DNA from: an uncultured Phycisphaerales bacterium
GTDB lineage: Bacteria > Planctomycetota > B15-G4 > SIAN01
DNA length: 24,848 bases
Direction of reading: 5' to 3'
NCBI GenBank assembly: GCA_964426265.1
Contig: CAYRQC010000230.1
Coordinates: forward strand, 1 to 24,848
Shown: piece by piece, positions 3,074 through 20,474 of the stretch
Position numbering within the stretch: the stretch's first letter is position 1
Layout of the letters: each line of letters opens with the position of its first letter
Position numbers and translations under genes: made by a program
Notes under the pieces: generated by a model
The model's input: the letters and a program-made list of their open reading frames with translations, nothing else
The model's database searches: none
Told to the model about the DNA's origin: nothing

Positions 3074-3493
3074 GTGGCGCTCGAACACCGTGTCTTGATC
3101 TTTGTCTATCGCCGCCGGAGTGGCGGTATCGAGTACCTGTTCGAGCGCCGTCACCCGACCGAGGAGTTCGCCTGGACGCCGATTCCGGCCGAGGTCGGGC
3201 CGACCGACTCGCTCGAAAGCGCAGTCCGCCGCAGCATGGAGGTCGATTGGCAGGCCCCCCCTCCTGAACGGCTCCTCGACCTCAAGGTCTGCGGCCACTT
3301 GAGCGTCGGAGACCTTGACCTGGTCGACTGGGGTGTCGGCTACGGCGTACGTCCGTTGTGGGAGCCGCGCGAACGGCTCTCTCCCATGCGCGCGGAGCTG
3401 ATCTGGCGATCGCTGCCTGTGGCGCTCGGGCTGCTCGAGAACGAGTCGACCCGTCGCGCGCTGTTTCGCCTCCACCTGGAGGCGGCGAGCTAG
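3074..3493 (+). CDS. Nudix-fold protein (NudB-like) with degenerate Nudix box
   Basis: GTG at 3074 with GGAG at 3061-3064. N-terminal VLIFVYRR..GIEYLFERR....W resembles NudB-like proteins. The box region reads AEVGPTDSLESAVRRSMEVDWQ. Confidence 0.6.
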   Translation: MALEHRVLIFVYRRRSGGIEYLFERRHPTEEFAWTPIPAEVGPTDSLESAVRRSMEVDWQAPPPERLLDLKVCGHLSVGDLDLVDWGVGYGVRPLWEPRERLSPMRAELIWRSLPVALGLLENESTRRALFRLHLEAAS

Positions 3494-3582
3494 TCGTCAG
3501 CGACGGGCGCATTGCGCAGGCGTGGTCGCCGCGGAAGATTGCCGCCGGACGTGCGTCGGAGTGGGCGGTCCCGGAGCCTGGA

Positions 3583-5091
3583 ATGGACGCGGCGCGCAAG
3601 CAGCTCGAACGCCGATCACGGCGAGCACGCAGGAACGAGTCGGGGATCGTGTTGATCCTGGCGATGTTCGTCGTGCTCGTCCTCCTCGTGATCGTCCCGC
3701 AGTTCCGGTTCAGCGCGCACGTCGAGCGCGAGCTGGCGATGAACGACGTCCTCGACCTGCAGATGGAGCAGCTGGCGCGCGCCGGGATCATGCGGACGCA
3801 AGCAGCATTGCTCCTCGACCTCGAGGAGGACACCTCGAGTGAAGACGAGCAGGACCCGGCCGGTAATGGCGGGCTCGATGGCGGCGCGGGCGGCGCCGGT
3901 GGCGCCGGCGGTGGAAGCGGCGCGGGCTCGGGATCCGGTGGGGCAGCCGACGCCACCGGCGGGGCCGGGAATCACGTCGACTCGCTCGAGGAGCCGTGGG
4001 CGACCGGCCATCTCGACTTCACGCTTGGCGAGGAGGCCAATCTAAAGACGAAGATCGTCGTCACCGACGAGGACTCGAAGTTGAACGTCCTCCTGCTTTG
4101 TACCGAGGACGACGACTATCGTCGCGAGTGGCGCGGCCGCTTCGAGCGGTGCATCGATCTCATGCGCGATGGCCAGACCGACGACCTCGCGGTGAGCGAC
4201 GCGGCGAGCCTGCTCGACCGGATGGAAGGCTGGATGCACGGCGAGCGGGACGGCGACGAGCTCGCCGACCCTCCGCTCGCGACGGGCGACTGGCAGAAGA
4301 TCGTCCAACGCCCGACGCATGCGCCGCTATCACTCGCCGAGTTCTGCCTGGTTGGCGGATTGCCGCCGCGCTTGCTCCATGGATTTCCGGTCGGCGAAGG
4401 CGACGACGAGAAGTGGTTGCCCGGCTTGAGTCAGGCGCTGACGGTCTGGTCGAACGTCGAGTACAAGGAGAAGCAGTCGGAAGAGGACGAACCGCCGGCT
4501 GACGTCTCCAACGATCAACGGGTCCGTCCGCCTCCGCAGGGGGTCAACAACGGCCGCGTCAACGTGAACACGGCGCCGGTCTACGTGCTGAAGAGCCTCT
4601 TCCCCGACTCCGACGTGCCCTACTCAGCGTGGGATGAGTACGACGAGTTTCGTCGCGATCAGCTCGAGGAGATTCGTAAGCGTCAAGAAGATCGCGCGCG
4701 CGGCATCGGTGACGAGGAGAGCGATCGGGAGAAGAAGGACCCCGGGGACGACGACAGCCCCGCGAAGTACCCATTCAAGACGATCGACGACCTGCGCAAG
4801 GTCGATGGGTTCAGTGCTGGCGACAGCTCGATTCCGCCGGCCAAGTGGGACAAGCTCGCGTCACTGCTTGCGGTCGAGAGCAACGTCTTCACGATCACCG
4901 TGATCGTCGCAACGCTCGATCCGCCACGCCGCTACTACGCCGCCCGCGCCGTGGTCTGGCGGCGAGCTCAGGGTGGCGAGTCCGCCGAGTGCCTCCCCAT
5001 CGTCCCGTTCGAGCGCATGCCGTTGAGCGCGGTCGACCTCCGGGACTTCGCCAAGGAGCTCGAGGACGAGGAGGGGTACTCGTACCGGTAG
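3583..5091 (+). CDS. gspK: Type II secretion minor pseudopilin GspK-like protein
   Basis: Class III signal peptide RRARRNESG|IVLILAMFVVLVLL without Glu+5 (typical of GspK). Other motifs: DSLEEPWA, VTDEDSKLNV, GRVNVNTAPVYVL, FKTIDDLRKVDGF, LAVESNVFTI. GGAG at 3573. Confidence 0.8.
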   Translation: MDAARKQLERRSRRARRNESGIVLILAMFVVLVLLVIVPQFRFSAHVERELAMNDVLDLQMEQLARAGIMRTQAALLLDLEEDTSSEDEQDPAGNGGLDGGAGGAGGAGGGSGAGSGSGGAADATGGAGNHVDSLEEPWATGHLDFTLGEEANLKTKIVVTDEDSKLNVLLLCTEDDDYRREWRGRFERCIDLMRDGQTDDLAVSDAASLLDRMEGWMHGERDGDELADPPLATGDWQKIVQRPTHAPLSLAEFCLVGGLPPRLLHGFPVGEGDDEKWLPGLSQALTVWSNVEYKEKQSEEDEPPADVSNDQRVRPPPQGVNNGRVNVNTAPVYVLKSLFPDSDVPYSAWDEYDEFRRDQLEEIRKRQEDRARGIGDEESDREKKDPGDDDSPAKYPFKTIDDLRKVDGFSAGDSSIPPAKWDKLASLLAVESNVFTITVIVATLDPPRRYYAARAVVWRRAQGGESAECLPIVPFERMPLSAVDLRDFAKELEDEEGYSYR

Positions 5092-5963: not shown

Positions 5964-6440
5964 ATGACGGTGCTCTTTGCGACGTTGCTCTTTTCATTCG
6001 CCGGCGTCATGCACGGGCTGCTCTGGCTCCTGCTGATCGTCACGATGTTCCTGCTCATCGGTGTCATCTTGCTCCAAGAAGGCAAGGGCGGTGGGCTCGC
6101 CGAAGCGTTCGGTGGCGCCGGTGCCGAAACCTTCGGCGTCAAGGCGCACGGCATCAACAAGTTCACCGCGCTGGTCGGTGGCGTCTTCCTGCTCCTTTGC
6201 GTCGTGCTGGCGAAGTTCAAGGTCGAGCCCGATGCAACGCCGCTCAATCCGGACTACAAGCCACCGGTCCAGCGCAACAACGATCCGGGATCGATTGACC
6301 CGATGGAGAACGACATCCCCTCGACTCCGCTGGAAAATGGAGCGGGTGACGGATCGGGCGCGGGCGCGGGCACGCCACCAGCGAGCAGCGGTGCGGGCGG
6401 TACGCCGCCGGCATCCGGCGGGGTACCCGATCAAAAGTGA
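5964..6440 (+). CDS. secG: Preprotein translocase subunit SecG with long Pro/Gly-rich C-terminal tail
   Basis: LIGVILLQEGKGGGLAEAFGG...TFGVK...INKFTALVGGVFLLLCVVLA. Classic tpiA-secG order. ATG at 5964 after GAGG. Confidence 0.92.
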   Translation: MTVLFATLLFSFAGVMHGLLWLLLIVTMFLLIGVILLQEGKGGGLAEAFGGAGAETFGVKAHGINKFTALVGGVFLLLCVVLAKFKVEPDATPLNPDYKPPVQRNNDPGSIDPMENDIPSTPLENGAGDGSGAGAGTPPASSGAGGTPPASGGVPDQK

Positions 6441-6481
6441 TCCCTCCTGCGTGATCGAAGGGCTGCTGGGAGAGTGCACTC

Positions 6482-7096
6482 GTGGATGCTTCTGAAGTCC
6501 GCCGGCTGCTCGAAGAGACGCAGGCGCTGCTCACCGGCCACTTTCTCCTCAGCTCCGGCAAGCACAGCGACAAGTACTTCCAGTGCGCACGGGTGCTGGC
6601 CTCCCCGGCTCGCGCCTCGTTGCTGGGCGCCGGCATCGGCAGCCGTTGGGCCGAGGAGACGATCGACTTGGTCGTCGGTCCGGCAATCGGCGGAATCCTG
6701 ATCGCGCACGAAGTCGCCCGCTATCTCGGGACACCCGGCTACTACACCGAACGCGAGGCGGGGAAGATGACCCTCCGTCGCGGTTTCGCGCTGGAGCCTG
6801 GAACGCGGGTGCTGGTGGTCGAGGATGTCGTGACGACCGGCGGTTCGGCGCAGGAGGTGATCGACCTCATCGTGAGCCACGGACTGGAGGTCGTCGGCGT
6901 GAGCTCGATCGTCTGGCGTTCGCCCGAACCGAACGCAAGCTCGCCGTTCGGGGACCTGCGGTTCCGCCCACTGTTGACGTTGCCCACCGAGGCGTGGGAT
7001 CCACCGGAGTGTCCGCAGTGCAAGCAGGGCAAGCCGGTCTACAAGCCGGGCAGCCGCGCCCAGCCGCCCGTCGTCAACGCCCAAGCCGGAAAGTGA
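6482..7096 (+). CDS. pyrE: Orotate phosphoribosyltransferase
   Basis: GHFLLSSGKHSDKYFQC, VVGPAIGGI, and the PRPP-binding motif VLVVEDVVTTGGS. Confidence 0.95.
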   Translation: MDASEVRRLLEETQALLTGHFLLSSGKHSDKYFQCARVLASPARASLLGAGIGSRWAEETIDLVVGPAIGGILIAHEVARYLGTPGYYTEREAGKMTLRRGFALEPGTRVLVVEDVVTTGGSAQEVIDLIVSHGLEVVGVSSIVWRSPEPNASSPFGDLRFRPLLTLPTEAWDPPECPQCKQGKPVYKPGSRAQPPVVNAQAGK

Positions 7097-7100
7097 GACG

Positions 7101-7982
7101 ATGCTCGCGAGCATGACCGGATTCGGCCGCGCCGCGAGCCGCGGCCGGGGTCCGCGCCTGCTCTGCGAGGTGCGTTCGGTCAACCACCGCTTCCTCGCCA
7201 CGAAGATCCGGTTGCCGAGTGCGCTCCAGCAGCTCGAGCCATGGGTCGAGCAGCGGGTGCAGTCGCGGCTCCATCGCGGGTCGGTGGAAATCGCCGTCTT
7301 CTGGCGCGACGCCGGCGCGCGCCTGGCGTCGTACCTCGACGCGAAGGTGGCCGACCACTACCTCGAACAGCTCCGCGCCTACTCGAAGAAGCGCCGGCTC
7401 ACGGCCGAATTGCGGGTCGAGGCGCTGCTCGCTCTCCCGGGGGTGTTGGCTCCCGCCGACCCGGATGCCATCTCCGCGGACTTCAAGCCCGAGCTGCAGA
7501 AGGTGATTGACGCCGCGCTCGACGCCTTGGTGGCGATGCGGCAGCGGGAGGGGGAACGGCTTGCCGTGGTGTTGCGCCGTGAGGTGAAGCGGATCCAGCA
7601 GTGCGCGGCCACCATCCAGGAGCGCGTCCCGGAGACGGTGACGGGCTATCAGCGCCGGCTCGCGGAGCGGATCGCGGTGCTGCTGAGCTCGCAGTCGGTC
7701 ACTCCCGACCCGGCGATCCTGGCACGGGAGGTGGCGATTTTTGCCGATCGCTCCGACGTGACCGAGGAGTTGGACCGGCTCAAGAGTCACGAAGCGGAGT
7801 TCGAAAAGCTCCTCTCGAAGAGCGGGCCGATCGGTCGCGAGTTCGAGTTCCTGCTTCAGGAGATGGGCCGCGAAGTGCAGACGATCGGAAGCAAGCTGCA
7901 GGATCCGGAGCTGCTCTCCCGGGTGAGGGAGGCGAAGGCGAGCGTCGAGAAGCTCCGGGAGCAGGTGGCGAACATCGAGTGA
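7101..7982 (+). CDS. yicC: YicC/YloC family endoribonuclease
   Basis: SMTGFGRA, EVRSVNHRFL, ADRSDVTEELDRLKSH, GREFEFLLQEMGREVQTIGSK, KLREQVANIE. Confidence 0.95.
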   Translation: MLASMTGFGRAASRGRGPRLLCEVRSVNHRFLATKIRLPSALQQLEPWVEQRVQSRLHRGSVEIAVFWRDAGARLASYLDAKVADHYLEQLRAYSKKRRLTAELRVEALLALPGVLAPADPDAISADFKPELQKVIDAALDALVAMRQREGERLAVVLRREVKRIQQCAATIQERVPETVTGYQRRLAERIAVLLSSQSVTPDPAILAREVAIFADRSDVTEELDRLKSHEAEFEKLLSKSGPIGREFEFLLQEMGREVQTIGSKLQDPELLSRVREAKASVEKLREQVANIE

Positions 7983-8575
7983 GCGAAATCCGCACCGATA
8001 CTGGTGTGCCCCCGACCCGACGGCCGTTTCGGGGCGGCTTGGCCGTGCTCTCAGGGCCGTCCGGCTCAGGCAAGACCTCGATCTGCAAGGCGCTACTCGA
8101 GGATCCCCGCGTCGAGCTCTCGATCAGTGCGACGACCCGCAAGCCGCGCGTCGGCGAGCAGCACGGAGTCGACTACTGGTACTACTCGAAGGAGCAGTTC
8201 CAGCGGATGGTCGCGAGCGGCGACTTCGTCGAGTGGGCGGAGGTCTACGGCAACTACTACGGGACGTTGCGTGCACCGCTCGAGACGGCGAGCCGGCGGA
8301 CCGAGCGGCTGATGCTGCTCGACATCGACGTGCAAGGCGCCGCCCAGCTCCGCAAGCAGGGGATTCGCGCCCTCTCGCTCTTCGTCGCACCACCTTCGAT
8401 GGACGAGCTGCGCCGACGTCTCTCGACCCGAGGTACCGACTCGCCGGAGGTCATCGCACAGCGCCTGCGCTGGGCCGAAAGTGAGATGGCGCAGCGCGAT
8501 CAATACGACCACGTCCTGGTGAACTCGCAGTTGGACGCGACCATCGCGATGGCGCGGGCGCTGCTCGGCCTCTAG
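7979..8575 (+). CDS. gmk: Guanylate kinase
   Basis: P-loop SGPSGSGKT, SISATTRKPR.GE.HGVDY, FVEWAEVYGNYYGT, LDIDVQGA, FVAPPS. The GTG start overlaps the yicC stop (GTGA). Confidence 0.97.
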   Translation: MSEIRTDTGVPPTRRPFRGGLAVLSGPSGSGKTSICKALLEDPRVELSISATTRKPRVGEQHGVDYWYYSKEQFQRMVASGDFVEWAEVYGNYYGTLRAPLETASRRTERLMLLDIDVQGAAQLRKQGIRALSLFVAPPSMDELRRRLSTRGTDSPEVIAQRLRWAESEMAQRDQYDHVLVNSQLDATIAMARALLGL

Positions 8576-8653
8576 CATGCCCCGCGGTTGGGCGGCCCGG
8601 GGAGGGGGGCAGAGTGTATCTGCCCCGCGAGGCCGTTCGCTGCGAGTGCACCC

Positions 8654-11464
8654 GTGGCGAGCGAGCGTTCCAAAGAGCTGGCGGCGTTGGCCTGGATTGG
8701 CGCGGGCATCTTCATGCTCGCGGCGATGCTGTCGTATGAAGAGGTCGTCAAGTCGGCCGACCGCTGGGACAACGTTTGCGGGCATTTCGGTTTCGTGCTC
8801 GCGCGTGCGCTGCTCGGCCAGCTCGGCTTCGCGGCGTACTTGATCCCGATCGCGCTGATCGGCGAAGGGGTGCGCCTTTTCGGGCGGTTCGCCGCACGGC
8901 CGATCGCGTTGCGGGCGGTGGGCATCCTCCTCTTCATGCCGATGCTTGCGGCGGTGCTGAACGACGCGCTTGGTGGTCACAGCACGCGGATCCCCGATCC
9001 CGGTGGCGACGTCGGCATCGTGCTCGCGCGGCTCCTGAAGCACGAAGGGGGGCTCGGGCTGTTCGGCGGCCGCATTGCGATGGCGGTGCTGTTGCTGATC
9101 ACCTTCGTCTTGTATGCGGATCTCCTCTACTCGCGCTCGGCGCTGAACGCGTTGCAATGGGTCGAGCGGCGCGGCGGCGTCGCTCGGCTCTTCGGATTCG
9201 GCGGCCGATCGGCGGAGGTCCCCAGCCGTTCGGCGAAGCGCGAGCGTGGCGATGAGCGCGCGGCGTCCGACGCCAGCGAGCCGGTCGCCTCGTCGAATGC
9301 CGAGCTGGACGCCGACCTCGCCCGCTCGCTCGAGTCGGATCGCGCGGTGCCGGCCGCTGAGCGTGTGCCGCCAGGCGCGCCGAAGCGGCGTCCAAAGCGA
9401 CGGGCTGCATCGGTTGGCGCGGCGGTCGACGCGGCCGTCGCGAGCGACGACTTCGTCGCCGATGAGGAGACGCAAGAAACGGTCGACGACGAAGTCGACC
9501 TCGCACCGCGCACGTCGCGTTCGAAGAAGACGGTGAAGTCGACCGTTATTTCGGAGGTCGACGCAGCTGCGGGCGGCGCAGACGCCGGGAACGACGAGGG
9601 GATGGACGACGGGGCTGGAGACGACGAGTCTCGGGGCGACGACCAGGCAGATGACGACGCCGGGCAGGTTGCTGCACGCGCCGCCGAGTCGACTGCTGTG
9701 GAGCCCTCCGCGACGCCGGCGGTGGGTGACGACGAGTCGGAGGCGCCGCCCTCGCCGATCGCGACGCCCATCCCGGCCATGGTGGCTCCGCGCAAGGCGC
9801 AGTTGCCCATCAAGTCCACGTTGATCGAGCCGCCCGAGCCGCCGCTGATCCGCCCCAACGCGCCCTACCAGTTCCCGCCCTACCAGTTGCTCGATCCGCC
9901 GGAACGCGAGAGCGGTGGCGACTTCATCAAGTTCACCGAGGAGGCGGCACGCAAGCTGACGACGGCGCTGAAGTCGTTCAAGGTCGAGGCGTGCGTCGTC
10001 GGAGTCCAGCGTGGGCCGTCGATCACGATGCTCGAGGTCGAGCTGGCGGCCGGCACGAAGCTCACGCGACTGCGCGCGCTCGAGGACGACCTGGCGATGG
10101 CGCTCGCGGCGCAGAGCGTTCGCATCGTCGCGCCGATCCCCGGCAAGTCGACCGCCGGCATCGAGATCCCGAACGATGCCCGCGAGATCGTCCGGATGTC
10201 CGAGCTCCTGCAATGGCAGGGCTGGAACCCGCAGAAGTACGCGATCCCGATCTGCCTGGGCAAGGACTCGAGCGGCGCGCCGCGCATCGAGGACCTCGCG
10301 AAGATGCCGCACCTGCTGGTTGCCGGCTCGACCGGCTCGGGCAAGTCGGTCTGCCTCAACACGCTGATCATGTCGATCCTCTTCACTCGGACGCCGGAGC
10401 AGGTGAAGCTGATCCTGATCGACCCGAAGATGGTCGAGCTGTCGTCGTTCCAGAACGTGCCGCACCTCATGTGCCCGGTCGTCACCGACATGAAGCGCGC
10501 GGCCGGCATCCTCGAGTGGGCGGTCGAGAAGATGGAGGAGCGTTACGCCCTGCTCCACAAGGTGGGCGTGCGCAACATTTACGCCTACAACAAGGTCGGG
10601 GACGAGGAGGTCAAACGGCGGCTCGGCGACGAGTTCTCGGAGGACTTCGAGACGACGCTGCCGTTCGTGGTGATCGTGATGGACGAGCTCGCCGACCTGA
10701 TGCTCTCCCACGGCAAGGATGTCGAGCAGTCGATCACCCGGCTCGCGCAGAAGTCGCGCGCCGTCGGGATCCACGTGATCCTCGCGACGCAGCGACCCTC
10801 GACCAACGTGATCACCGGCCTCATCAAGGCGAACCTGCCGACCCGGATCGCCTTCCGCGTGACGAGCAAGATCGACTCGCGCGTCATCCTCGACCAGAAC
10901 GGCGCTGACAAGCTGCTCGGCCAGGGCGACATGCTCTACGTGCCACCGGGCAGCGCCGATCTCTCGCGAGTCCAGGGCTGCTTCGTCACCGACCAGGAGA
11001 TCCGCCAGGTCGTCGATTTCCTCGCCGACCAGGGGCCGCCGCTTTACTCGCGGGAGCTGGTGCAGAAGCACAGTGCCTCCGACAAGGATCCGTCCGAGGT
11101 CGACGACCTGTTCGACGACGCGGCCAAGTTCGTGGTGGAGACGCAGCGTGGATCGGCGTCGCTCCTGCAGCGGCGGTTCGCGATCGGCTACACGCGTGCG
11201 TCGCGATTGATCGACTTGATGGCGAATGATGGGCTGCTCGGGGACTTCAAGGGCAGCCAGGCGCGTGAGGTGCTCTGCACGAGCATGGAGGAGCTCGCTG
11301 CGCGCCGCACCGAGCAGCGACAGACGCGCGGCGTGAAGACGACGAGCAAGAGCGAACCACCGGGTGAGTCCGCCACGGCGCGAGATCCCGAGTCATCGGG
11401 ACTCGACTTCGACGACGCGCTGGAGGGCGGGAACGAGGGCAGGAACGAGGAGATGAAGGCATGA
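8654..11464 (+). CDS. ftsK: DNA translocase FtsK/SpoIIIE (complete: TM domain, linker, alpha-beta motor, gamma domain)
   Basis: N-terminal TM helices, Walker A AGSTGSGKS, DPKMVEL, Walker B VIVMDELADLM, RLAQKSRAVGIHVILATQRPS, gamma domain SASLLQRRFAIGYTRASRLID. Start taken as GTG 8654 (the ORF track begins at 8588). Confidence 0.97.
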   Translation: MASERSKELAALAWIGAGIFMLAAMLSYEEVVKSADRWDNVCGHFGFVLARALLGQLGFAAYLIPIALIGEGVRLFGRFAARPIALRAVGILLFMPMLAAVLNDALGGHSTRIPDPGGDVGIVLARLLKHEGGLGLFGGRIAMAVLLLITFVLYADLLYSRSALNALQWVERRGGVARLFGFGGRSAEVPSRSAKRERGDERAASDASEPVASSNAELDADLARSLESDRAVPAAERVPPGAPKRRPKRRAASVGAAVDAAVASDDFVADEETQETVDDEVDLAPRTSRSKKTVKSTVISEVDAAAGGADAGNDEGMDDGAGDDESRGDDQADDDAGQVAARAAESTAVEPSATPAVGDDESEAPPSPIATPIPAMVAPRKAQLPIKSTLIEPPEPPLIRPNAPYQFPPYQLLDPPERESGGDFIKFTEEAARKLTTALKSFKVEACVVGVQRGPSITMLEVELAAGTKLTRLRALEDDLAMALAAQSVRIVAPIPGKSTAGIEIPNDAREIVRMSELLQWQGWNPQKYAIPICLGKDSSGAPRIEDLAKMPHLLVAGSTGSGKSVCLNTLIMSILFTRTPEQVKLILIDPKMVELSSFQNVPHLMCPVVTDMKRAAGILEWAVEKMEERYALLHKVGVRNIYAYNKVGDEEVKRRLGDEFSEDFETTLPFVVIVMDELADLMLSHGKDVEQSITRLAQKSRAVGIHVILATQRPSTNVITGLIKANLPTRIAFRVTSKIDSRVILDQNGADKLLGQGDMLYVPPGSADLSRVQGCFVTDQEIRQVVDFLADQGPPLYSRELVQKHSASDKDPSEVDDLFDDAAKFVVETQRGSASLLQRRFAIGYTRASRLIDLMANDGLLGDFKGSQAREVLCTSMEELAARRTEQRQTRGVKTTSKSEPPGESATARDPESSGLDFDDALEGGNEGRNEEMKA

Positions 11465-13302
11465 CGTTGGGCGCGCTGTCGTTGACCGATCGGCTTGGCG
11501 GCTGGCCGCAAGGCTGCCTGGTTTTCTTCATCTTTTTCTGGCTGCTGCTGGCGCTGCTTGGCATCCGGAACTCGCGGCTGCCGGTGCGCGTCGTCGGCTT
11601 CGCGACGTTCGTGATCGCGTCGGCGCTCTGGCTCGGGATGCACCCGGCCCAGACCGAACGGTGGCAGATCGATGCTGGCCTCCTCGGCTACTGGGGCAAG
11701 GCAGGTCTGCTGGGTCAACTCACCGGGTCGCCATCGGCCCTGAATGCGATCGGCGCGCTGCTGATCGTCTGCTCGGTCGTCGGGCTCCTCATCGCGGCCG
11801 ATTGGTTGCCGTTGTTGGCGCTTGCGCCATTGGCGGAGAAGGTCGACGCGCGATGGAAGGCGTCGGCGATGGCGCGGGAATTGGTTCGCTCCCGGCAGTC
11901 GCCCGCGGCGCCGAGACCGCCGCTCCCGCTGTTGCCACCGCTACCGGCGCCCACCATGCAGCGCACCGCCACGGCGACCGTGGTTGCACCGGCGGCACCA
12001 CCACCGCCAGCTCCAGCCGCTCTGGCTCCAGTCACAGCCTCGCCAGTGAACGCAGCTTCGGTGCGCGAAGTGGTTGCGGTGGAGCCATCCGCCGCCACGA
12101 CGTCGGAGGTCAATGGTGAGCTCGCCGACGAAGTCGACGACGGTGTCGACGACGTGGTGGTCCAGCCAACCACGCAATGGGAGCGGTTCAAGCCGCGCGC
12201 TCGTCCCGAGGAATCTCCTGACCGCTTGCCGGTAGACAAGGGGCTGCAACGGACGCATAACACCTCGCTTTCGGAGGGCGAAAGCCGCGCTGTAGAGGTG
12301 CCACCCTCCGATGTTTCCGTCGAGGCAAGTGTTCCGGCGGCCGCGGTGTTGTCGGAGGCGTCATCGCCTTCGGACGCTGCGCCCCAGCTGGCACCCGAGC
12401 AGAAGGACGCGCCCGTGTTCGAGCACGATCGAAACCCAGAGGACCCTACGGACGAAGCAGGCGCGGCCGTTGTCGCGACGCTCGACGAGTTGCTCGAGGC
12501 GGCTTCGAACGAGCCGCCCGCCGCCAGTGCCAGCGAGACGCTCGCCCCGCGCCGAAAGAAAGCAGACGAGCCCTCCGAAGATCCGGCCGAGGAGCCGACG
12601 GAAGAGCCTGCCGAGAAGCCCGATGAAGAGGGTGAGGGTGAGGGCGAAGGCGAGGAGGGTGAGGAGGACGACGAAGAGAGCTGGGACGACGACGACGCCG
12701 AGGAGGGTGACGACAAGGAGGATTGGGAAGAGGACGACGAGAAAGAAGACGAGGACGAGAAGGAAGAAGAGGAACCGGAAGAAGACGACGAAGAGGAGGA
12801 GGAGGAGGAAGAAGAAGACGACGACGATTGGGACGAGGACGAGGACGAAGAGGAAGACGACAAGGCGAAGGACGACGAAGAGGACGAAGAAGAGGAGGGC
12901 GGTGGTTGGGACGACGACCAGAGCTCGTCGACGCAGCCCACGCCGAAGGTCACCTCACTCACCGACGAGTCGATCACCCCACCCGTCGAACCACGGGTCG
13001 CCGCAGTCGAGCTCCCCGATCGGCTGCCTGCAGTGCCCGACGCGTTGGTGCTACCTCGTGGGTTCCTGGCCGACCTTCCAGACGAAGAGCGGCAACTGCT
13101 GACGCGTGCCGTCGCGCTCCTCCTCGCGGTCGAGACGGTCTCACTCTCCAAGCTCCAGCGCGAGCTCGCCATCACGTATTACGCTGCGGCTCGCGTCTTC
13201 GAACGGCTGGAGAAGGAGGGCTTCATCGCGCCCTACTCGGGCAGCCTGGCCCGTTCGGTTCGCATCACTCGCGAAGAGTGGGACCAACGCCTCCGGGCGT
13301 GA
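11461..13302 (+). CDS. Motor-less FtsK-like protein: TM anchor, Pro/Ala linker, hyperacidic tract, FtsK-gamma-like winged helix
   Basis: 613 aa, ATGA overlap with the ftsK stop. About 3 N-terminal hydrophobic helices. C-terminal LLTRAVALLLAVETVSLSKLQRELAITYYAAARVFERLEKEGFIAPYSGSLARSV aligns with the gamma domain of the upstream FtsK. No Walker A or B. Confidence 0.8.
   Translation: MTLGALSLTDRLGGWPQGCLVFFIFFWLLLALLGIRNSRLPVRVVGFATFVIASALWLGMHPAQTERWQIDAGLLGYWGKAGLLGQLTGSPSALNAIGALLIVCSVVGLLIAADWLPLLALAPLAEKVDARWKASAMARELVRSRQSPAAPRPPLPLLPPLPAPTMQRTATATVVAPAAPPPPAPAALAPVTASPVNAASVREVVAVEPSAATTSEVNGELADEVDDGVDDVVVQPTTQWERFKPRARPEESPDRLPVDKGLQRTHNTSLSEGESRAVEVPPSDVSVEASVPAAAVLSEASSPSDAAPQLAPEQKDAPVFEHDRNPEDPTDEAGAAVVATLDELLEAASNEPPAASASETLAPRRKKADEPSEDPAEEPTEEPAEKPDEEGEGEGEGEEGEEDDEESWDDDDAEEGDDKEDWEEDDEKEDEDEKEEEEPEEDDEEEEEEEEEDDDDWDEDEDEEEDDKAKDDEEDEEEEGGGWDDDQSSSTQPTPKVTSLTDESITPPVEPRVAAVELPDRLPAVPDALVLPRGFLADLPDEERQLLTRAVALLLAVETVSLSKLQRELAITYYAAARVFERLEKEGFIAPYSGSLARSVRITREEWDQRLRA
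12577..12918 (+). repeat. Low-complexity GAG/GAA/GAC-rich tract encoding ~114 aa, about three-quarters Asp/Glu
   Basis: EDPAEEPTEE...EEEEEEEEEDDDDWDEDEDEEEDD...GGGWDDD. Mixed synonymous codons indicate protein-level selection rather than slippage. Confidence 0.9.
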
Positions 13303-13326
13303 GTCCCACGGACGAGGCGCCAGGAC

Positions 13327-13932
13327 GTGACCCTCGCCAACAAGATCACCACCTCCCGACTGGCGCTTGCGGTGGTGCTGTTCGTGCTGCTCGATCTGCT
13401 CGGGCGCGGCGACCCGTTGCCGGGGTGGCCTCTCACGACGGTCTGCTTCGTCCTCTTCATCGTCATCACCGCGACCGACGCGCTCGACGGCTACTACGCG
13501 CGCAAGCTCGGGCAGGTCAGCGACTTCGGGCGCATCGCCGACCCCGCCGCCGACAAGGTGATCGTCTGCGGCTCGTTCGTCTTCCTCTCGGCCGTGCACT
13601 GGGGGCGCGAGATTGTTCCACCCTGGATCGTGGTTGCGATCCTCTGCCGCGAGTTCATCGTCACAGCGTTGCGCGGCTACATGGAGCGCAAGGGACACGA
13701 ATTCGGTGCTGATCCGGCTGGCAAGGTGAAGATGATCGTCCAGTGCGTCACGATTCCGGTCATCCTCGGATACCGGATCGTCGATGACGGACTCTCCGAC
13801 CGCTGGCCCGCGTTGCCGCGCGCGGTCTGGTGGTCGGCGGTGGTCCTGGTCTGGTTGACGCTGCTGATCACCGTCTGGAGCGGGATCGGCTACGTGCGCA
13901 AGTCGGCGATTCACCTGAGGGAGGGGTTGTGA
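13327..13932 (+). CDS. pgsA: CDP-diacylglycerol--glycerol-3-phosphate 3-phosphatidyltransferase
   Basis: LANKITTSRL, CDP-alcohol phosphotransferase motif TDALDGYYARKLGQVSDFGRIADPAADK, REFIVTALR, GKVKM. Confidence 0.95.
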   Translation: MTLANKITTSRLALAVVLFVLLDLLGRGDPLPGWPLTTVCFVLFIVITATDALDGYYARKLGQVSDFGRIADPAADKVIVCGSFVFLSAVHWGREIVPPWIVVAILCREFIVTALRGYMERKGHEFGADPAGKVKMIVQCVTIPVILGYRIVDDGLSDRWPALPRAVWWSAVVLVWLTLLITVWSGIGYVRKSAIHLREGL

Positions 13933-14471
13933 CGCAACGGACGCTGGCTGACCCTTCGACGCCGCGTCGCCAGCCGACGATGGTCGACCGCCTGAACGCG
14001 GCGGTGGTCTCTTGCTTCGGACTCGGCTACGCGCCGGTCGCGTCCGGGACGTTCGGTACGCTCGGTGGCGTTGCGCTGGTGTTGCTGCTCGAGAAGGTGG
14101 TCTGCCCGGGTCAGGGTTGGCACTTCGGCCTTGCTGCGGGCGTCGTCGCGGCGCTCATCCTGCTGCTCGGGATCGCGCTCGGCGGGTGGGCGGAACGCTA
14201 TTACCAGATGAAGGATCCCAAGCCGTTCGTGATCGACGAAGTGGTGGGCTACCTGGTCGCCGTCCTGCGCTGGAAGGGGGGCACTCCAGGCGTCTCGGAG
14301 CTGGTACTCGCGTTCTTCGCCTTCCGGTTGTTCGACGTCGTGAAACCGTGGCCGGCGCGCCGCCTCGAGTTCCTGCCGAAGGGGTTCGGCATCATGCTCG
14401 ACGATGTGGTCGCCGGGCTCTACGCGCTGGCGTTGGTGGCGGTGGTGCGCGACTGGAACGAGTGGCAGTAG
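13929..14471 (+). CDS. pgpA: Phosphatidylglycerophosphatase A
   Basis: FGLGYAPVASGTFGTL, KDPKPFVIDEVVG, FRLFDVVKPWP, GIMLDDVVAG. GTGA overlap with pgsA. Confidence 0.93.
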   Translation: MTQRTLADPSTPRRQPTMVDRLNAAVVSCFGLGYAPVASGTFGTLGGVALVLLLEKVVCPGQGWHFGLAAGVVAALILLLGIALGGWAERYYQMKDPKPFVIDEVVGYLVAVLRWKGGTPGVSELVLAFFAFRLFDVVKPWPARRLEFLPKGFGIMLDDVVAGLYALALVAVVRDWNEWQ

Positions 14472-14523
14472 CGCCAGCCGGAAGCCGCTCCTCGGCTCAC
14501 CCACACGATCGGGAGACGACGCC

Positions 14524-16218
14524 ATGGCGCGCCACAAGCACCGAAGCCATCCTCACCACGCTGGCGGCGCAGAGGGGAGTTCGGGCCCACCGCTCGCGGG
14601 CGGCGGCCGCAACAAGTCCTCCGGACTCGGAGTCGCTGCCCAGTTCTCGGTGGCGACGGCCGGGACCGTCGCGGCCTCGCTGGTCGTCTTCGGCTTCATC
14701 CTCTACCGGATCCTCGGCGGCATCCTCTCCGACGAGATCGATGCGACCGGTGTGCAGGCGGTGCGCGCGCTCGCGGTGGTCGATGCCGGATGTTGGGAGC
14801 CGTTCCACGAGACGGCGCTCGAGGGGCGCGGTGCCGAGTCGCGCTCGGCGGGCGGTCTCGGTCCGGTCACGCTCGCGGCCGACAAGAAGGCACAGTTCGA
14901 GAAGCGGAACGCGCTGAACAAGGCTCGCATGCGCCAACTGGTCGCGGCTCGCGGCACGAAGCTGCTCGACGCGGTGATCCTCGATCCGATCTCGCGCAAA
15001 GTCATCAGTGGCGCCGCCACGATCGCCTCCGAGCCGATCTCGAGCCGCGCCTTTGCCGAGGTGTCGATCCAGGAGGGCTACTACCTCGCCGACTCGGGAC
15101 ACGGCAACCAGCGCCGGACGGCCGCGCGCATCTACTCCGCCGACGTGAAGGATCAGGACGGCAAGGTCGCCGCCAAGGCGGTCGTCGCGCTCTCCGCGGA
15201 GAAGATCGGCGAGAGCCTGTCGCGCGTGCTGATGAGCCTCGTGCTGCTCACCGTGGTCTTCCTCGGTGTCGGGATCGGCGTCTCTTTCCTGGTGGCGCAG
15301 CGCATCACCAAGCCGATCCAGCAGCTCGCGGAGGACATCGAGACGGTGGCCGCGGGTGAGCTCGAACACCGGACGCAGGCGCACAGCTCGGACGAGATCG
15401 GGGTGCTCGCTCGCACGTTCGACCGCATGACACAGAGCCTCTTCGAGCTGCAAGGCGTCGAGAAGAAGCAAGCGGCGCAGGAGCACCAGATCGAGGTGGC
15501 GCGCGAGGTGCAGGCGGCCCTGCTCCCCGAGAAGCTGCCCCCGGTGCCGGGCTTCGAGTGCGCGGCGGTGTCGCGGGTCGCGGCCAAGGTGGCCGGTGAC
15601 TTCTACGACGTGTCAGAGATGGCTGCCGGCGCCAAGCTGCTGGCGGTCGTCTCGGCGTCGGGCGGCGGCGTACCGGGCGCGATGGTGGTGACGATGGCGC
15701 GCTCGCTGCTCAAGGCGCTTGCCGGAAACGAATCGTCGCCCGCCGAGCTGTTGCGCCGCGTGAACCACTTCCTGGCACCCGACCTGCGCCGCGGCATGTA
15801 CGTGTCGGCCCTGCTCGTGCGCGTCGATCCCGGCTCGGGAAAGATCGTCGTCGCCAACGCGGGGCACCATCCGCTGTTGATCGTCAAGAAAGGGGCGACG
15901 GCGGCCTCGCCTCTCCACAGTGACGGGATCGCACTCGGCTTCGACAAGGGGCCGATCTTCGACCGGACGATCAAGGATCGCGAGCTCGAGCTCCTGGCGG
16001 GCCAGCGGCTGCTGCTCTGTGCTCGTTCGCTGTTCGGCGTCAAGGACGCGGAAGGCCGCGAGATCGGCGAGGCGGCGGTCTATGAGCTCTTCGCCCGCGA
16101 GTCGGCGCGCGCCGGCGAGGAGTTCGTCGCGGCGGTCCTCGCGGAGCTCGAGCGGTTCCGTGCCGGCGCCGAGGCGAGCGACGACGTGACCTTCCTCACG
16201 GTGCGGCGGGCGGTGTGA
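14524..16218 (+). CDS. Membrane sensor with HAMP and SpoIIE/PP2C-like domain, probably catalytically impaired
   Basis: Two TM helices flanking an extracytoplasmic region; HAMP RITKPIQQLA...DEIGVLARTFDRM; SpoIIE-like AREVQAALLP, AGDFYD, VANAGH, DDVT. ATG 14524 after GGGAG. Confidence 0.88.
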   Translation: MARHKHRSHPHHAGGAEGSSGPPLAGGGRNKSSGLGVAAQFSVATAGTVAASLVVFGFILYRILGGILSDEIDATGVQAVRALAVVDAGCWEPFHETALEGRGAESRSAGGLGPVTLAADKKAQFEKRNALNKARMRQLVAARGTKLLDAVILDPISRKVISGAATIASEPISSRAFAEVSIQEGYYLADSGHGNQRRTAARIYSADVKDQDGKVAAKAVVALSAEKIGESLSRVLMSLVLLTVVFLGVGIGVSFLVAQRITKPIQQLAEDIETVAAGELEHRTQAHSSDEIGVLARTFDRMTQSLFELQGVEKKQAAQEHQIEVAREVQAALLPEKLPPVPGFECAAVSRVAAKVAGDFYDVSEMAAGAKLLAVVSASGGGVPGAMVVTMARSLLKALAGNESSPAELLRRVNHFLAPDLRRGMYVSALLVRVDPGSGKIVVANAGHHPLLIVKKGATAASPLHSDGIALGFDKGPIFDRTIKDRELELLAGQRLLLCARSLFGVKDAEGREIGEAAVYELFARESARAGEEFVAAVLAELERFRAGAEASDDVTFLTVRRAV

Positions 16219-16282
16219 CGCGGTGGGACGCGTGGTGGTGTGACGCGAAGGGTGATGCTCGGTGCGACCGCGAGGACGAGTC

Positions 16283-16594
16283 ATGACCGTCGGCGAGTTC
16301 CAGCGACTGATCGACGCGACCTTCGGCGCGAAGGACCGCGGCCGCGGGCTCGAAGGCACCTTCATGTGGTTCACCGAGGAGGTGGGCGAGCTGTCGCGGG
16401 CGCTGCGCCGCAACGTGCGCGGCCCGCCGCTCGAGACGGAGTTCGCCGACGTCCTCGCGTGGCTCTCCACCCTGGCGAGCATCGCTGGCGTCGATCTCGA
16501 GGCGGCTGCGCTGGCGAAGTACGGCGGCGGCTGTCCACGCTGTCGCGCGATCCCGTGCCGTTGCGCGGAGCCGGCGAGGAGCCAGGCGCCGTAG
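16283..16594 (+). CDS. MazG-like nucleotide pyrophosphohydrolase with C-terminal Cys cluster
   Basis: MTVGEFQRLI, WFTEEVGELSRAL, EFADVLAWL, KYGGGCPRCRAIPCRC. Confidence 0.88.
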   Translation: MTVGEFQRLIDATFGAKDRGRGLEGTFMWFTEEVGELSRALRRNVRGPPLETEFADVLAWLSTLASIAGVDLEAAALAKYGGGCPRCRAIPCRCAEPARSQAP

Positions 16595-16709
16595 CTCTTC
16601 TTGCGCCCGGCGATGAAACCAGCGGCAACGGCCATCGTCCTGATCGTGGATGCCGACCGGCTCGTTGCTCGCTCTTGGGCCGCGTAGTGTCGGCGCAGTG
16701 AGCCGAACC

Positions 16710-18983
16710 ATGGACGATGCCAACGCCGCAACTACCGCCTTGCCCGCGCCCCTGCCGCAGCCGCGGTTTGCGCGCGTCGCGGTCGCGTTGCCCGTCGATC
16801 GGACGCTTCACTACCGGATTCCCGACGCGTTGCTGGCGCAGGTGGCGGTCGGCACGCGCGTCAAGGTGCGCCTCTCCGGACGGCCGGTCTTCGGGACGGT
16901 GGTCGCACTCGATGCAGTCGCGGACGTTCCGCGAGTCATCGACGTCGAGGCCGTCATCGCGCCCGGAACACGGGTCAGCGCCGAGGTGATCGAGCTCTGT
17001 CGGTACGTCGCCGATCGCTACGGAGCGTCGCTCGGCGAGACGCTGGAGAGCGCCGTGCCGCCGCCGGTGCGCCGCGGTGGCACGGGCGTCCGCAAGGTGG
17101 TCAACGTCAAGCTCGCACCGCGACTTGCCACCGCTCTGCAGACGCGCGTGGAGGTCGATGCCCTGCAGCTGAAGCACCCGAAGCAGGCGCGGGCGCTGCG
17201 TCTGCTTGGCGAGGCGGGCAGCGAGCTGCGCGAGATCGACCTCCAACGCCGCGCGGCCGTCGGCCCCTCGCCGGTCGAGAGCTTGGTCCGCCGCGGCCTC
17301 ATCGTGCGCACGCTGACCGACGACCGCACCGATCCGGCCTTCGCGGCGCCGCTGGCACCCGCCGCACCGCCGCCGCGCCCGACCGCCGAGCAGCAGGCCG
17401 CGGTCCACGCGATCACCTTGGCGCTCGAGTCGCGGCGTCACCGCGGATTCCTGCTCTTCGGCGTGACCGGCAGCGGGAAGACCGAGGTCTACCTGCGCGC
17501 GCTCGAGGAGACGATCAAGCGCGGGCGGCGCGGGATCGTCCTGGTGCCGGAGATCGCCCTCACGCCGCAGACGGTGGCGCGCTTTCGTGGCCGCTTCCCG
17601 CGGGTCGCGGTGCTCCACTCGGCGCTCTCGGAACGCGATCGGTTGCGCGAGTGGCGGAGCATCGAGGCGGGCGCGGTCGACGTCGTGGTCGGCGCGCGCT
17701 CGGCGGTCTTCGCGCCGATGCCGGACCTGGGCCTCATCGTCGTCGACGAGGAGCACGAGCCGAGCTTCAAGCAGCAGAACCCGCCGCGCTACCACGCGCG
17801 CGAGGTGGCGCTGGCCCGCGGTGCCCGTTGCGGCGCGGTGGTGGTGCTCGGCTCCGCGACGCCGAGCCTCGAGATGTGGGTGGCTGCGCGCGACGAGCGG
17901 TTGACGCTGCTGCGCCTGCCGCGCCGCGTCGGCGGCGGCGTCCTGCCGACCGCGCTCGTGCTCGACCTCTCGGCGCTACCGTTCACCAAGCATCCGCGCA
18001 TGCTGACCGACCGCCTGCGCGCGTCACTCGAGCAGGTGATCCGCAAGCAGGAACAGGCGATCCTCTTCCTGAACCGCCGCGGCTTCGCCCGGGTGGCGTT
18101 CTGCCCGGGCTGCAAGGCGGCCACGCAGTGTCCCGAGTGCGACGTGGCGCTCGTGCTGCACCAGCGAGCCGGGCGGCTCATGTGCCACCTCTGCGGCCAT
18201 GAAGAGCCGCCGTCCGCGCGCTGCAAGAAGTGCGGGCAGGGCGTGCGCTTTCTCGGCTTTGGCACCGAGCGCGTCGAGCAGGAGCTGCGCTCGGTGCTGC
18301 CCGGCGCCCGCATCGCGCGCATGGACAGCGACACCACGGCCGCGCAGGGCGCCCACGAGAAGCTCCTCGGCGCGTTCGGGCGTGGCGAGATCGACGTGCT
18401 GATCGGCACCCAGATGATCGCGAAGGGGCTCGACTTCCCGCGTGTGACGCTGGTCGGGATCGTGTCGGCCGACACGTCGCTCTCGGTGCCCGATTGGCGC
18501 GCCAGCGAGCGGACCTTCCAGCTGGTCGCACAGGTCGCCGGCCGCGCCGGCCGTTCCGATCGCGGTGGCCTCGTGATCGTGCAGACGATCCACCCGCAAC
18601 ACCCGGCGATCCAGTGCGCCGTGCGGCACGACTACGAGGCATTCGTCGCGAGCGAGCTCCCGTTGCGCATCGAGGCCGCCTATCCGCCGTCCACCGAGAT
18701 CGTGCGCATCCTCATCTCGCACGCCGATGTCGAGCGCACGCGGCTCGCGGCGATGAAGGTCAAGGAGAAGCTCGCGCCGATGGCCGGCGAGTTCGGTGTC
18801 GAGCTGCTCGGTCCCGCTCCATGCCCGATCGAGCGCGTCCGTGGCCGCTGGCGCTGGCAGCTGCTGCTCAAGTGCCGTGCTGTCACGGAGCTGACTCGCG
18901 TTGTCGCCTGGGCCCGCGAGCGCGTCGCGCAGAGCGCCCCCGTCCGCGTCACGCTCGACGTCGACCCTGCGTCGATGCTGTGA
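16710..18983 (+). CDS. priA: Primosomal protein N' (replication restart helicase)
   Basis: Walker A GVTGSGKTEVY, LVPEIALTPQ, DEEHE, SATP, LNRRG, four CxxC pairs, GTQMIAKGLDFP, QVAGRAGR, C-terminal DVDP. Start taken as ATG 16710. Confidence 0.98.
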   Translation: MDDANAATTALPAPLPQPRFARVAVALPVDRTLHYRIPDALLAQVAVGTRVKVRLSGRPVFGTVVALDAVADVPRVIDVEAVIAPGTRVSAEVIELCRYVADRYGASLGETLESAVPPPVRRGGTGVRKVVNVKLAPRLATALQTRVEVDALQLKHPKQARALRLLGEAGSELREIDLQRRAAVGPSPVESLVRRGLIVRTLTDDRTDPAFAAPLAPAAPPPRPTAEQQAAVHAITLALESRRHRGFLLFGVTGSGKTEVYLRALEETIKRGRRGIVLVPEIALTPQTVARFRGRFPRVAVLHSALSERDRLREWRSIEAGAVDVVVGARSAVFAPMPDLGLIVVDEEHEPSFKQQNPPRYHAREVALARGARCGAVVVLGSATPSLEMWVAARDERLTLLRLPRRVGGGVLPTALVLDLSALPFTKHPRMLTDRLRASLEQVIRKQEQAILFLNRRGFARVAFCPGCKAATQCPECDVALVLHQRAGRLMCHLCGHEEPPSARCKKCGQGVRFLGFGTERVEQELRSVLPGARIARMDSDTTAAQGAHEKLLGAFGRGEIDVLIGTQMIAKGLDFPRVTLVGIVSADTSLSVPDWRASERTFQLVAQVAGRAGRSDRGGLVIVQTIHPQHPAIQCAVRHDYEAFVASELPLRIEAAYPPSTEIVRILISHADVERTRLAAMKVKEKLAPMAGEFGVELLGPAPCPIERVRGRWRWQLLLKCRAVTELTRVVAWARERVAQSAPVRVTLDVDPASML

Positions 18984-19862: not shown

Positions 19863-20234
19863 ATGCACCGCTCACTCACGCTGCTCCTGCTGTTGGTCGG
19901 CGCCGTCGCGTGCGCCTCGCCCTACCACTCCGGCAGCCACGTGACCGGCGCGGGCGGCCTCGTGGTCGAGCAATCGTCCCTCCACGCGACTGACCACGGG
20001 CAGCGGTTGGCGCTGCGCCTGCTCGATCCGGCGGGCCTCTCGGCGGCCCGTTCCACGGTCGTCGTGTCGAGCGTCGCGGCGGATGGCTCCCTCGTCGAGC
20101 TGGCGCGCGGGCGGATCGATCGAATCGCTCTCTCTCACGTGCCCTACGACCGCTCCCGTCACGCCACGGCGGTGGTCGAGCTTGCCACGCCACTCCCCGC
20201 GGAGGTCATCGTCGAGCTCCGCCCCGGTCGCTGA
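19863..20234 (+). CDS. Putative small lipoprotein / exported protein
   Basis: MHRSLTLLLLLVGAVA-C (basic N-region, hydrophobic core, imperfect lipobox), followed by a beta-rich body. 123 aa. Confidence 0.6.
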   Translation: MHRSLTLLLLLVGAVACASPYHSGSHVTGAGGLVVEQSSLHATDHGQRLALRLLDPAGLSAARSTVVVSSVAADGSLVELARGRIDRIALSHVPYDRSRHATAVVELATPLPAEVIVELRPGR

Positions 20235-20474
20235 TCGAGCGGCAGCGCGTTCCGCTTCGTCGCTCACCGCGCCCGATGCGGTCGGAATCGTTTGCGCACA
20301 CCGCTGCTGCGTAGGCGCGCCGCGCGCAGCGTCCGCGAATCGAGCTGAAGCCCACCGCCGCGGTCGCGCCGAAGCAATCGGTGAGTCGCGCGCCCACGGC
20401 ACGCGGCCAGACCCGAGGTTCGGCGGCGGGAGGGCAGGGCGTTGGGGCAGCGCGCAAGCTGGTCGAACCGCGGC

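Follow-up and report, generated by a model that had tools for sequence, protein, structure and literature searches.

A stretch of 24,848 nucleotides from an uncultured Phycisphaerales bacterium of the phylum Planctomycetota (GenBank assembly GCA_964426265.1, contig CAYRQC010000230.1; hereafter the window, meaning the whole stretch) encodes, immediately behind a complete ftsK gene, an FtsK paralogue from which the translocation motor is missing. The coding sequence (11461..13302, forward strand; 613 amino acids (aa) plus stop) was delimited by using the list of open reading frames (ORFs), Pfam, an AlphaFold2 (AF2) model and orthologues, and its product combines an FtsK-type membrane domain, a disordered acidic linker of ~390 aa and a C-terminal FtsK gamma winged helix. 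The ftsK-paralogue pair was found in all 31 loci with enough upstream sequence from Planctomycetota metagenome-assembled genomes (MAGs) and metagenomes, which removes the concern, raised in the initial annotation of this DNA, that the arrangement might be unique to one assembly. Most likely, the paralogue works at the membrane as an accessory to the FtsK machinery that does not itself translocate DNA, a reading to which we assign a probability of about one in two.

The upstream ftsK (8588..11464, forward strand) is complete, as had been claimed from inspection of the sequence. Its ORF comprises 958 aa when counted from the first start codon, a TTG (the true start is uncertain), and includes the N-terminal domain with four transmembrane (TM) helices, a linker, the alpha domain, the beta motor and gamma. 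All four Pfam domains were matched (FtsK_4TM, 53 bits; FtsK_alpha, 97 bits; FtsK_SpoIIIE, 210 bits; FtsK_gamma, 80 bits), and the protein also matches the NCBIfam model of the DNA translocase FtsK (E 4e-136). Since this gene has a gamma domain of its own, the possibility that the two ORFs are halves of a split ftsK was rejected.

No trace of a motor could be detected in the second gene. FtsK_SpoIIIE (PF01580) and FtsK_alpha (PF17854) gave zero Pfam matches in the paralogue, and the same two families were unmatched in 15 relatives derived from the surveyed loci and in the 27 sequences of alignment A4. A local hidden Markov model (HMM) of the motor also found no match anywhere in the paralogue, and the region between the two end domains is predicted to be disordered, in agreement with the earlier remark that no motor lies between them. 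The FtsK/SpoIIIE translocases are defined by a RecA-like alpha/beta motor with Walker A and B motifs; because it has no motor, the paralogue falls outside this class, yet it is clearly derived from that family.

AF2, hhalign and Pfam identify the N-terminal membrane domain (aa 1-145; 11461..11895, forward strand) as a homologue of TM2-TM4 in the 4TM domain of FtsK. In the AF2 model, which was built from a 27-sequence family alignment, this domain has a predicted local distance difference test (pLDDT) score of about 88-95 and contains helices at aa 14-32, 40-60, 73-86, 91-112 and 122-145. The first, second and fourth of these are the TM helices, the amphipathic GLLGYWGKAGLLGQ helix at aa 73-86 carries the GG.LG motif, and an A-x-D-W motif lies at aa 112-115. 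With the window sequence alone the similarity is weak: FtsK_4TM (PF13491) scored 14.6 bits, below its cut-off of 23.1, over aa 14-108 and profile positions 63-152 of 171. At the family level it becomes solid. Of 27 family members, 5 matched PF13491 (lowest E 3.5e-10), the HMM of the family N-domain matched genuine FtsK N-termini with E-values down to 6.5e-9, and hhalign, given profiles of 29 N-domains of the paralogue family and 40 of FtsK, aligned motif with motif over 157 columns at a probability of 98.5% (E 1.9e-15). With fewer sequences on each side (8 close N-domains and 7 of FtsK), the comparison gave no useful signal (probability 2%, E 0.02).

In the 29-sequence alignment of the domain, FG/LG is conserved, as are a Trp within the first TM helix that is shared, R..G in a cytoplasmic loop, GG.LG, and A-T/I-D-W where the last TM helix ends. 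The profile alignment places the beginning of the window paralogue at the TM2 equivalent of the FtsK N-domain, so that TM1 is missing; some other subgroups have one more N-terminal TM helix, that is, all four TMs. The initial annotation had likened the N-terminus to the last TM segments of FtsK; the homology holds, but it extends over the whole FtsK N-domain minus TM1 and not just over its last segments, and four TMs are kept in other subgroups. The charges of the loops (K+R of 2 after the first TM helix and 6 at the C-terminal side) fit the positive-inside rule, and because they point to a loop in the cytoplasm behind the first TM helix and to a C-terminus that is likewise cytoplasmic, the predicted topology has the N-terminus outside, three TM helices and the gamma domain in the cytoplasm. 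No PDB match to the N-domain was found. Automatic labels in IMG assign both PF13491 and PF09397 to two family members.

The C-terminal domain (aa 535-613; 13063..13299, forward strand) was assigned to FtsK gamma, as proposed initially, by using Pfam, AF2, Foldseek and phmmer. Pfam FtsK_gamma (PF09397) matches aa 542-602 (nt 13084..13266) with 48.4 bits (E 7.5e-13; cut-off 30.6), and it was also matched by all 15 locus-derived relatives and by 25 of the 27 A4 sequences, the other two being N-terminal fragments. The AF2 model of this domain (pLDDT 84-97) shows a helix-strand-helix-helix-wing order with an extra C-terminal helix at aa 604-612, and Foldseek superimposed it on the FtsK gamma structures 2J5P, 2J5O, 2VE8 and 2VE9 with a root-mean-square deviation of 1.1-1.4 Å over 58 aa (target TM-score 0.72-0.87, identity 29-33%). 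A phmmer search of the paralogue against the PDB likewise placed FtsK gamma entries on top (2j5o, E 6e-4). The Pfam score, the structural match to solved FtsK gamma domains and the conservation of the domain in dozens of loci exclude chance similarity. As a separate observation, the best Foldseek E-value for the gamma model belonged not to FtsK but to the winged helix of the chromatin-binding region of eukaryotic Hop1 (HORMAD; 9MUG), with 28% identity over 71 columns, and this match was also weakly visible in the sequence search.

In Escherichia coli, the residues that read the FtsK-orienting polar sequences (KOPS) are N1296, R1300 and E1303 (PMC2533119), and the contacts with the recombinase XerD involve Q1288, R1289 (critical), R1292, I1293, G1294 and N1296; according to Keller et al., the surface that binds XerD overlaps the one that binds KOPS (PMC5052618). 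The recognition helix of the window paralogue (YYAAARVFERLEK; 13177..13215, forward strand), located from the alignment and a residue table, has indeed been altered, as the initial annotation had noticed: it reads ITYYAAARVFE, whereas FtsK has IGYTRASRLID, which is invariant in 24 of 24 planctomycete FtsKs. The equivalents of N1296, R1300 and E1303 are Y574, R578 and E581, so two of the three are retained, and the local FtsK has T, R and D. Just upstream of the helix, Q566-R567 correspond to the XerD-contacting Q1288-R1289. Among the XerD contacts, Q566, R567 and I571 are retained, R1292 is replaced by Ala (as it also is in the local FtsK), G1294 by Thr and N1296 by Tyr.

The 24 planctomycete FtsKs have invariant Q, R, G, Y, R and R at positions 1288, 1289, 1294, 1295, 1297 and 1300, with T at 1296 (S in L048) and D at 1303 (E in L045). 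In the paralogues, the equivalents of Q1288 and of the wing residue R1320 (Q566 and R598 in the window) are invariant and that of R1289 (R567) is near-invariant, and the reading positions differ from those of FtsK while staying constant within each subgroup. At the equivalents of 1296, 1300 and 1303, subgroup A, which includes the window, has Y, R and E; subgroup B has A/G, R and R/Q; subgroup C has K (A in L011), A/T/E and D/E; and subgroup D has F, K and D/T. The net charge from helix 2 to the wing is +3 in subgroup A, against +2 for its FtsK, and ranges from -3 to +2 in subgroup C. For the window paralogue, DNA binding with a specificity different from that of FtsK is plausible from these residues, and it should not be assumed for the whole family.

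Between the folded ends lies the acidic linker (aa 146-534; 11896..13062, forward strand), which was characterized by AF2, composition and the motor HMM. It holds no motor remnant, and the pLDDT is below 50 across about aa 166-524. D and E make up 33% of its residues and its net charge is -100, compared with -18 for the linker of the window FtsK; the linker is net-negative in every family member (-19 to -236). Several short elements are embedded in it. The basic motif TQWERFKPRA (aa 238-247; 12172..12201, forward strand) has the consensus T[NQ]W.RF[RK]PR; 13 of 17 group-A sequences conserve it, and its neighbourhood cannot be aligned across group A. The motif is followed by RLPVD (12223..12237, forward strand), which appears as LPVD[NK] in the close subgroup. 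A hyper-acidic block (aa 384-490; 12610..12930, forward strand) has 73% D/E over 107 aa and is encoded by imperfect GAR/GAY repeats with an AT skew of 0.39 in the composition profile. Four Trp residues are set into this block as acidic-W-acidic motifs, and two to four motifs of poly-D/E, Trp or Phe, and poly-D/E were found per block in 16 of 17 group-A members. These conserved elements look like short linear binding motifs.

To trace the distribution of the gene, species-representative genomes were scanned with the FtsK protein, followed by tblastn, ORF analysis and HMM scans. The FtsK scan gave 40 loci, all in contigs titled as Planctomycetota MAGs except one titled Paratractidigestivibacter sp., and the taxonomic scope of the paralogue family rests on these titles. 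In 17 loci (L001-L016 and L020), ftsK is followed by a gene that encodes the same N-domain and another gamma; one of these loci (L010) ends before gamma. The paralogue of L012 (about 7500..9908) is interrupted by a frameshift in the acidic repeat; this locus comes from a long-read MAG (contig name 'tig...'), and the frameshift is probably a sequencing error rather than the mark of a pseudogene.

HMMER was also run exhaustively against 1.84 billion cluster representatives, with a profile in which the acidic linker was treated as insert states to guard against low-complexity matches. From the close subgroup it recovered about 12 full-length clusters at 50% identity, and it further recovered about 15 more distant clusters of motor-less proteins with TM and gamma domains. 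Eight representatives were examined in their contigs (P0032, P0046, P0057, P0055, P0150, P0122, P0146 and the fragment P0001), and an FtsK gene lies directly upstream on the same strand in seven of them, with differing flanking genes (extracytoplasmic function sigma factor/kinase, HEAT-repeat, MiaB-like and others). The upstream gene of P0122 encodes a cut product of 528 aa that contains the FtsK motor and gamma according to local HMMs, and the contig of P0001 starts inside the paralogue, so that only the downstream pgsA and pgpA are visible. A metagenome scan with the group-A alignment added nine more close relatives, and ftsK stands in front of the gene in all six that have upstream DNA.

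Start/stop overlaps are frequent at the junction between the two genes. In the window, the ATG of the paralogue (11461-11463) overlaps the TGA of ftsK (11462-11464); this ATGA overlap (11461..11464, forward strand), which the initial annotation had pointed out, is read directly in the sequence as ggcATGAcg, and a purine-rich GAGGAG lies 9-14 nt 5' of the ATG. The same overlap was found in seven of eight close relatives and in L050 (it is seen in L001-L005, L015 and L050). Other loci have TTGA (L009), an 8-nt overlap (L014, L020) or gaps of +4 to +171 nt, and a GAGGAG/GGAGG element is located roughly 6-15 nt 5' of the ATG in the close subgroup. The proposed translational coupling of the paralogue to ftsK is thus judged probable, given the ATGA in close relatives and the overlaps in more distant ones.

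Comparison of the sequences provides further information on the history of the family. In the window subgroup, gamma is the best-conserved part of the paralogue, with 71-76% identity versus 55-57% for the N-domain. The ratio of nonsynonymous to synonymous substitution rates (dN/dS) is 0.11-0.40 for gamma, lower than for the N-domain in six of seven window comparisons, and 0.10-0.51 for the N-domain in nine comparisons; an outlier of 0.72 comes from the near-identical pair L004/L005, whose dS of 0.011 reflects too few substitutions to be informative. Both folded domains of the paralogue are under purifying selection. A gamma-domain phylogeny, which the initial annotation had recommended, was built by neighbour joining: the paralogue gammas, except those of one subgroup, form a single clade with a weak bootstrap of 35%, and the order inside this clade mirrors the FtsK tree with longer branches. 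On average, the gamma of a paralogue is 31% identical to that of its own FtsK. Since the gamma tree mirrors the FtsK tree, an old, co-inherited duplication is indicated. In the simplest history, ftsK was duplicated in tandem long ago, and the second copy lost its motor, was passed on vertically together with ftsK, evolved faster than it and disappeared from some lineages.

The paralogue is a real gene; it is not an artefact of assembly and is not decaying. A non-functional remnant of the duplication, or an error of annotation or assembly in a high-GC genome, might be suspected from the low-complexity middle region, from an antisense ORF and from the few homologues returned by word-index searches of databases. 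Such an explanation is extremely improbable and was rejected, because it is contradicted by intact ORFs in more than 30 independent assemblies, by dN/dS below 1, by confident AF2 folds at both ends and by at least 12 50%-identity clusters of full-length orthologues. The antisense ORF (11715..13175, reverse strand; 486 aa, Ser-rich) lies opposite the GA-rich acidic linker and is a shadow, not a gene. It has practical consequences: in the Joint Genome Institute (JGI) contig of P0001, an antisense ORF of 318 aa was called and the real gene was cut to a 67-aa gamma fragment. As the shadow ORF misleads gene callers, the family is probably truncated or absent in many protein sets. Word-index searches returned no match for the N-domain query, one 67-aa fragment for the gamma query and one weak match for the family profile, a scarcity that can be explained by gene-caller errors and by the limits of the word index, in which TM-like words swamp the family-profile query.

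How the paralogue might act as an accessory partner can be outlined as follows. An ancestor of a broad Planctomycetota group would have duplicated ftsK in tandem, after which the second copy lost the alpha/beta motor and, in subgroup A, also TM1. The overlapping start and stop codons would allow FtsK and the paralogue to be made together, and the FtsK-like membrane domain would place the paralogue in or beside the FtsK membrane assembly; the N-domain of E. coli FtsK hexamerizes at midcell, as stated in the title of Bisicchia et al. (2013, mBio). The cytoplasmic gamma domain, on a polyanionic tether of ~390 residues, would then bind DNA and/or a Xer-type recombinase without pumping. As a second reader with a different recognition helix, it might tether DNA or tune the place and time of FtsK action or of recombination. 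Fusions of gamma to XerC or XerD suffice to catalyse Xer recombination (PMC5052618), and Q566, R567 and the wing residue R598, which are equivalent to E. coli Q1288, R1289 and R1320, support a potential for contacts with DNA and a recombinase. The conserved operonic linkage that would be expected of an accessory FtsK subunit is present in all 31 informative loci.

Several observations weigh against this proposal. No paralogue follows ftsK in the remaining loci of the survey (L017-L019 and L021-L040; Thermoguttaceae, Pirellulales and others), and in Planctopirus limnophila the gene after ftsK, Plim_2064, is mlaE, so that the pair is apparently missing there as well. The paralogue is therefore dispensable in some lineages, and the published transposon sequencing of P. 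limnophila is uninformative on this family. The adjacency to ftsK could partly reflect the ancestry of a tandem duplicate rather than function. The paralogue also evolves much faster than its neighbour: it is 46-49% identical to its counterparts in L002, L003 and L015, compared with 89-92% for FtsK. Moreover, the recognition helix varies among subgroups, and the gamma domain of group C is neutral to acidic and has no equivalent of R1300; sequence-specific DNA reading is thus not a universal function of the family. Finally, dif could not be predicted in the single planctomycete genome tested by Kono et al. (PMC3025954), which makes a role in Xer recombination uncertain.

Other functions have to be considered on the same evidence. 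The paralogue could be a division scaffold rather than a DNA factor, with the membrane domain and the linker as the working parts that help to build an apparatus for division or budding without FtsZ, and with gamma as a module for protein-protein contacts. It is through these parts that E. coli FtsK functions in cell division, the N-domain motifs are highly conserved in all subgroups, the short linker motifs (T[NQ]W.RF[RK]PR and acidic-W-acidic) are conserved, and the gamma of group C has no basic helix residues. Such a scaffold seems somewhat unlikely for the window paralogue, since gamma is the best-conserved part in subgroup A, its dN/dS is lowest in six of the seven window comparisons, and it retains both the wing Arg and the Q-R pair that serve in contacts with DNA and XerD; in addition, the neighbours are pgsA and pgpA, with no divisome gene nearby and no known divisome partner. 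A quite unlikely possibility is that the paralogue is an antagonist that holds FtsK off until the right moment, either through inactive mixed oligomers in the membrane or by sequestering KOPS-like sites or the recombinase. Isolated gamma supplied in trans reportedly interferes with KOPS recognition (Sivanathan et al. 2006), and co-production from overlapping genes, the overlap of the XerD- and KOPS-binding surfaces and a Trp-studded polyanionic linker that could mimic DNA would all suit such a decoy. However, the recognition helix differs from that of FtsK, which makes direct competition for the same DNA motif unlikely, and no sign of expression regulated apart from ftsK was seen.

A function independent of FtsK, for example as a membrane-tethered winged-helix regulator whose position is a relic of the duplication, is very unlikely. 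Winged helices are generic DNA binders, weak MarR matches overlap gamma, and the paralogue has diverged rapidly; on the other hand, the adjacency has outlasted deep divergence (FtsK identity down to ~50%) and the turnover of flanking genes, the start/stop overlaps have been maintained, and it is specifically FtsK gamma that the C-terminal domain matches best in structure and sequence. The accessory-partner reading also has a more far-reaching form, in which a large FtsZ-less clade of Planctomycetota would possess an obligate two-protein FtsK machine. Motor-less subunits would co-assemble with FtsK via the shared membrane domain and add another gamma reader of different tuning, carried on a polyanionic tether that mimics DNA, thereby gating DNA loading or recombination and/or building an FtsZ-independent division site. 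This form is speculative and regarded as unlikely; if it were true, the two-protein machine would be an unrecognized component of planctomycete chromosome segregation and division.

Compared with the FtsK translocase, the paralogue shares a homologous membrane domain (FG, the R..G loop, GG..G, and A-T-D-W/F where the last TM helix ends), a long variable linker, and a gamma domain with the same fold, Q-R pair and wing Arg. It differs in that the RecA-type alpha/beta motor is entirely gone, and it therefore cannot translocate DNA; TM1 is gone in subgroup A, the linker is far more acidic and the recognition helix is changed. Reduced members of the FtsK family that co-exist with a full-length translocase are exemplified by SftA of Bacillus subtilis, which keeps the motor and gamma and has no membrane domain. 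SftA is thus the opposite of the paralogue, which keeps the membrane domain and gamma and has no motor. Motor-independent effectors also have a precedent in XafT of the TLC-phi satellite phage, which is soluble and is not known to belong to the Pfam FtsK_gamma family. As described in two reports, XafT is a small, non-motor Xer activation factor (PMC6744903, PMC9226527); it is encoded by a mobile element, was not among the matches of any sequence search and is likened to the paralogue by description, not by sequence. The XerC-gamma and XerD-gamma fusions, in which gamma acts without the FtsK motor and which are reported to suffice for XerCD-dif recombination, are another parallel (PMC5052618). 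Unlike these laboratory constructs, the paralogue is a natural gene whose product is predicted to be membrane-anchored, has a different helix and belongs to a phylum with uncharacterized dif/Xer.

The HMMER matches also included many soluble tandem-gamma proteins (such as P0014 and P0015/P0152), and further examples were located in L046 (6001-6516) and L047 (4095-4610). Like the paralogue, they have FtsK_gamma without a motor, but they contain two to four gamma repeats, have no TM domain and no long linker, and do not lie beside ftsK; the neighbours of P0152 include a large serine recombinase, a gene with a Macro domain and a helicase. These proteins look like a separate family and may be associated with mobile elements. 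A gamma domain without a motor is therefore not unusual by itself, and the TM-anchored, ftsK-linked form is the distinct class.

No description of a motor-less FtsK paralogue was found in the full-text literature on planctomycete FtsK gamma, PF09397 and FtsK paralogues; by this measure the protein is undescribed, and only automatic Pfam-based names exist. FtsK is the sole essential member of the division and cell wall (dcw) cluster in P. limnophila and has been reported to be critical for divisome assembly in FtsZ-less Chlamydia (PMC12283558). A conserved and probably co-translated FtsK derivative that has no motor but still carries the targeting and regulatory ends represents a concrete new candidate component for the study of DNA segregation and division in FtsZ-less bacteria. 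It also offers a natural separation-of-function allele of FtsK, in which membrane domain, linker and gamma occur without translocation, and it illustrates that gamma exists outside translocases in both TM-anchored and soluble tandem forms. In addition, it exposes an annotation problem, in which a GA-rich acidic linker produces an antisense shadow ORF and gene callers consequently truncate the real gene.

The genes around the pair in the window lie on the same strand in the order tpiA, yicC, gmk, ftsK, paralogue, pgsA, pgpA, HAMP-SpoIIE phosphatase and priA. pgsA (13327..13932, forward strand; Pfam CDP-OH_P_transf) starts 24 nt after the stop codon of the paralogue, and the pgpA ORF (13830..14471, forward strand; Pfam PgpA) follows; the paralogue-pgsA-pgpA order was also found in L001-L006, L015, L050 and the P0001 contig. 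As the gap to pgsA is only 24 nt and no promoter-like site was found in 7000..16500, the paralogue, pgsA and pgpA likely belong to the ftsK operon. A hairpin with a T-rich tail (11497..11518, forward strand) inside the 5' end of the paralogue was considered as a terminator and rejected, with 6 such sites present versus 3.5 ± 2.2 expected by chance.

Elsewhere in the window, four long ORFs (771..2918 and 3358..5091 on the forward strand, 6431..7201 and 19872..20978 on the reverse strand; 715, 577, 256 and 368 aa) have no Pfam match at E ≤ 0.001. The ORFs of gmk (7601..8575) and pgpA (13830..14471) overlap yicC and pgsA, respectively, by hundreds of bases; their Pfam matches begin at aa 148 and aa 59, and the true starts are probably further downstream. 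A recurring gene order was observed in the window (7101..18983) and in L045, L048 and L050, namely yicC, gmk, (coaC, dut), ftsK, paralogue, (MiaB-like radical-SAM/TRAM), pgsA, pgpA, HAMP-SpoIIE phosphatase, (mazG) and priA, and its presence across distant relatives suggests an old conserved block.

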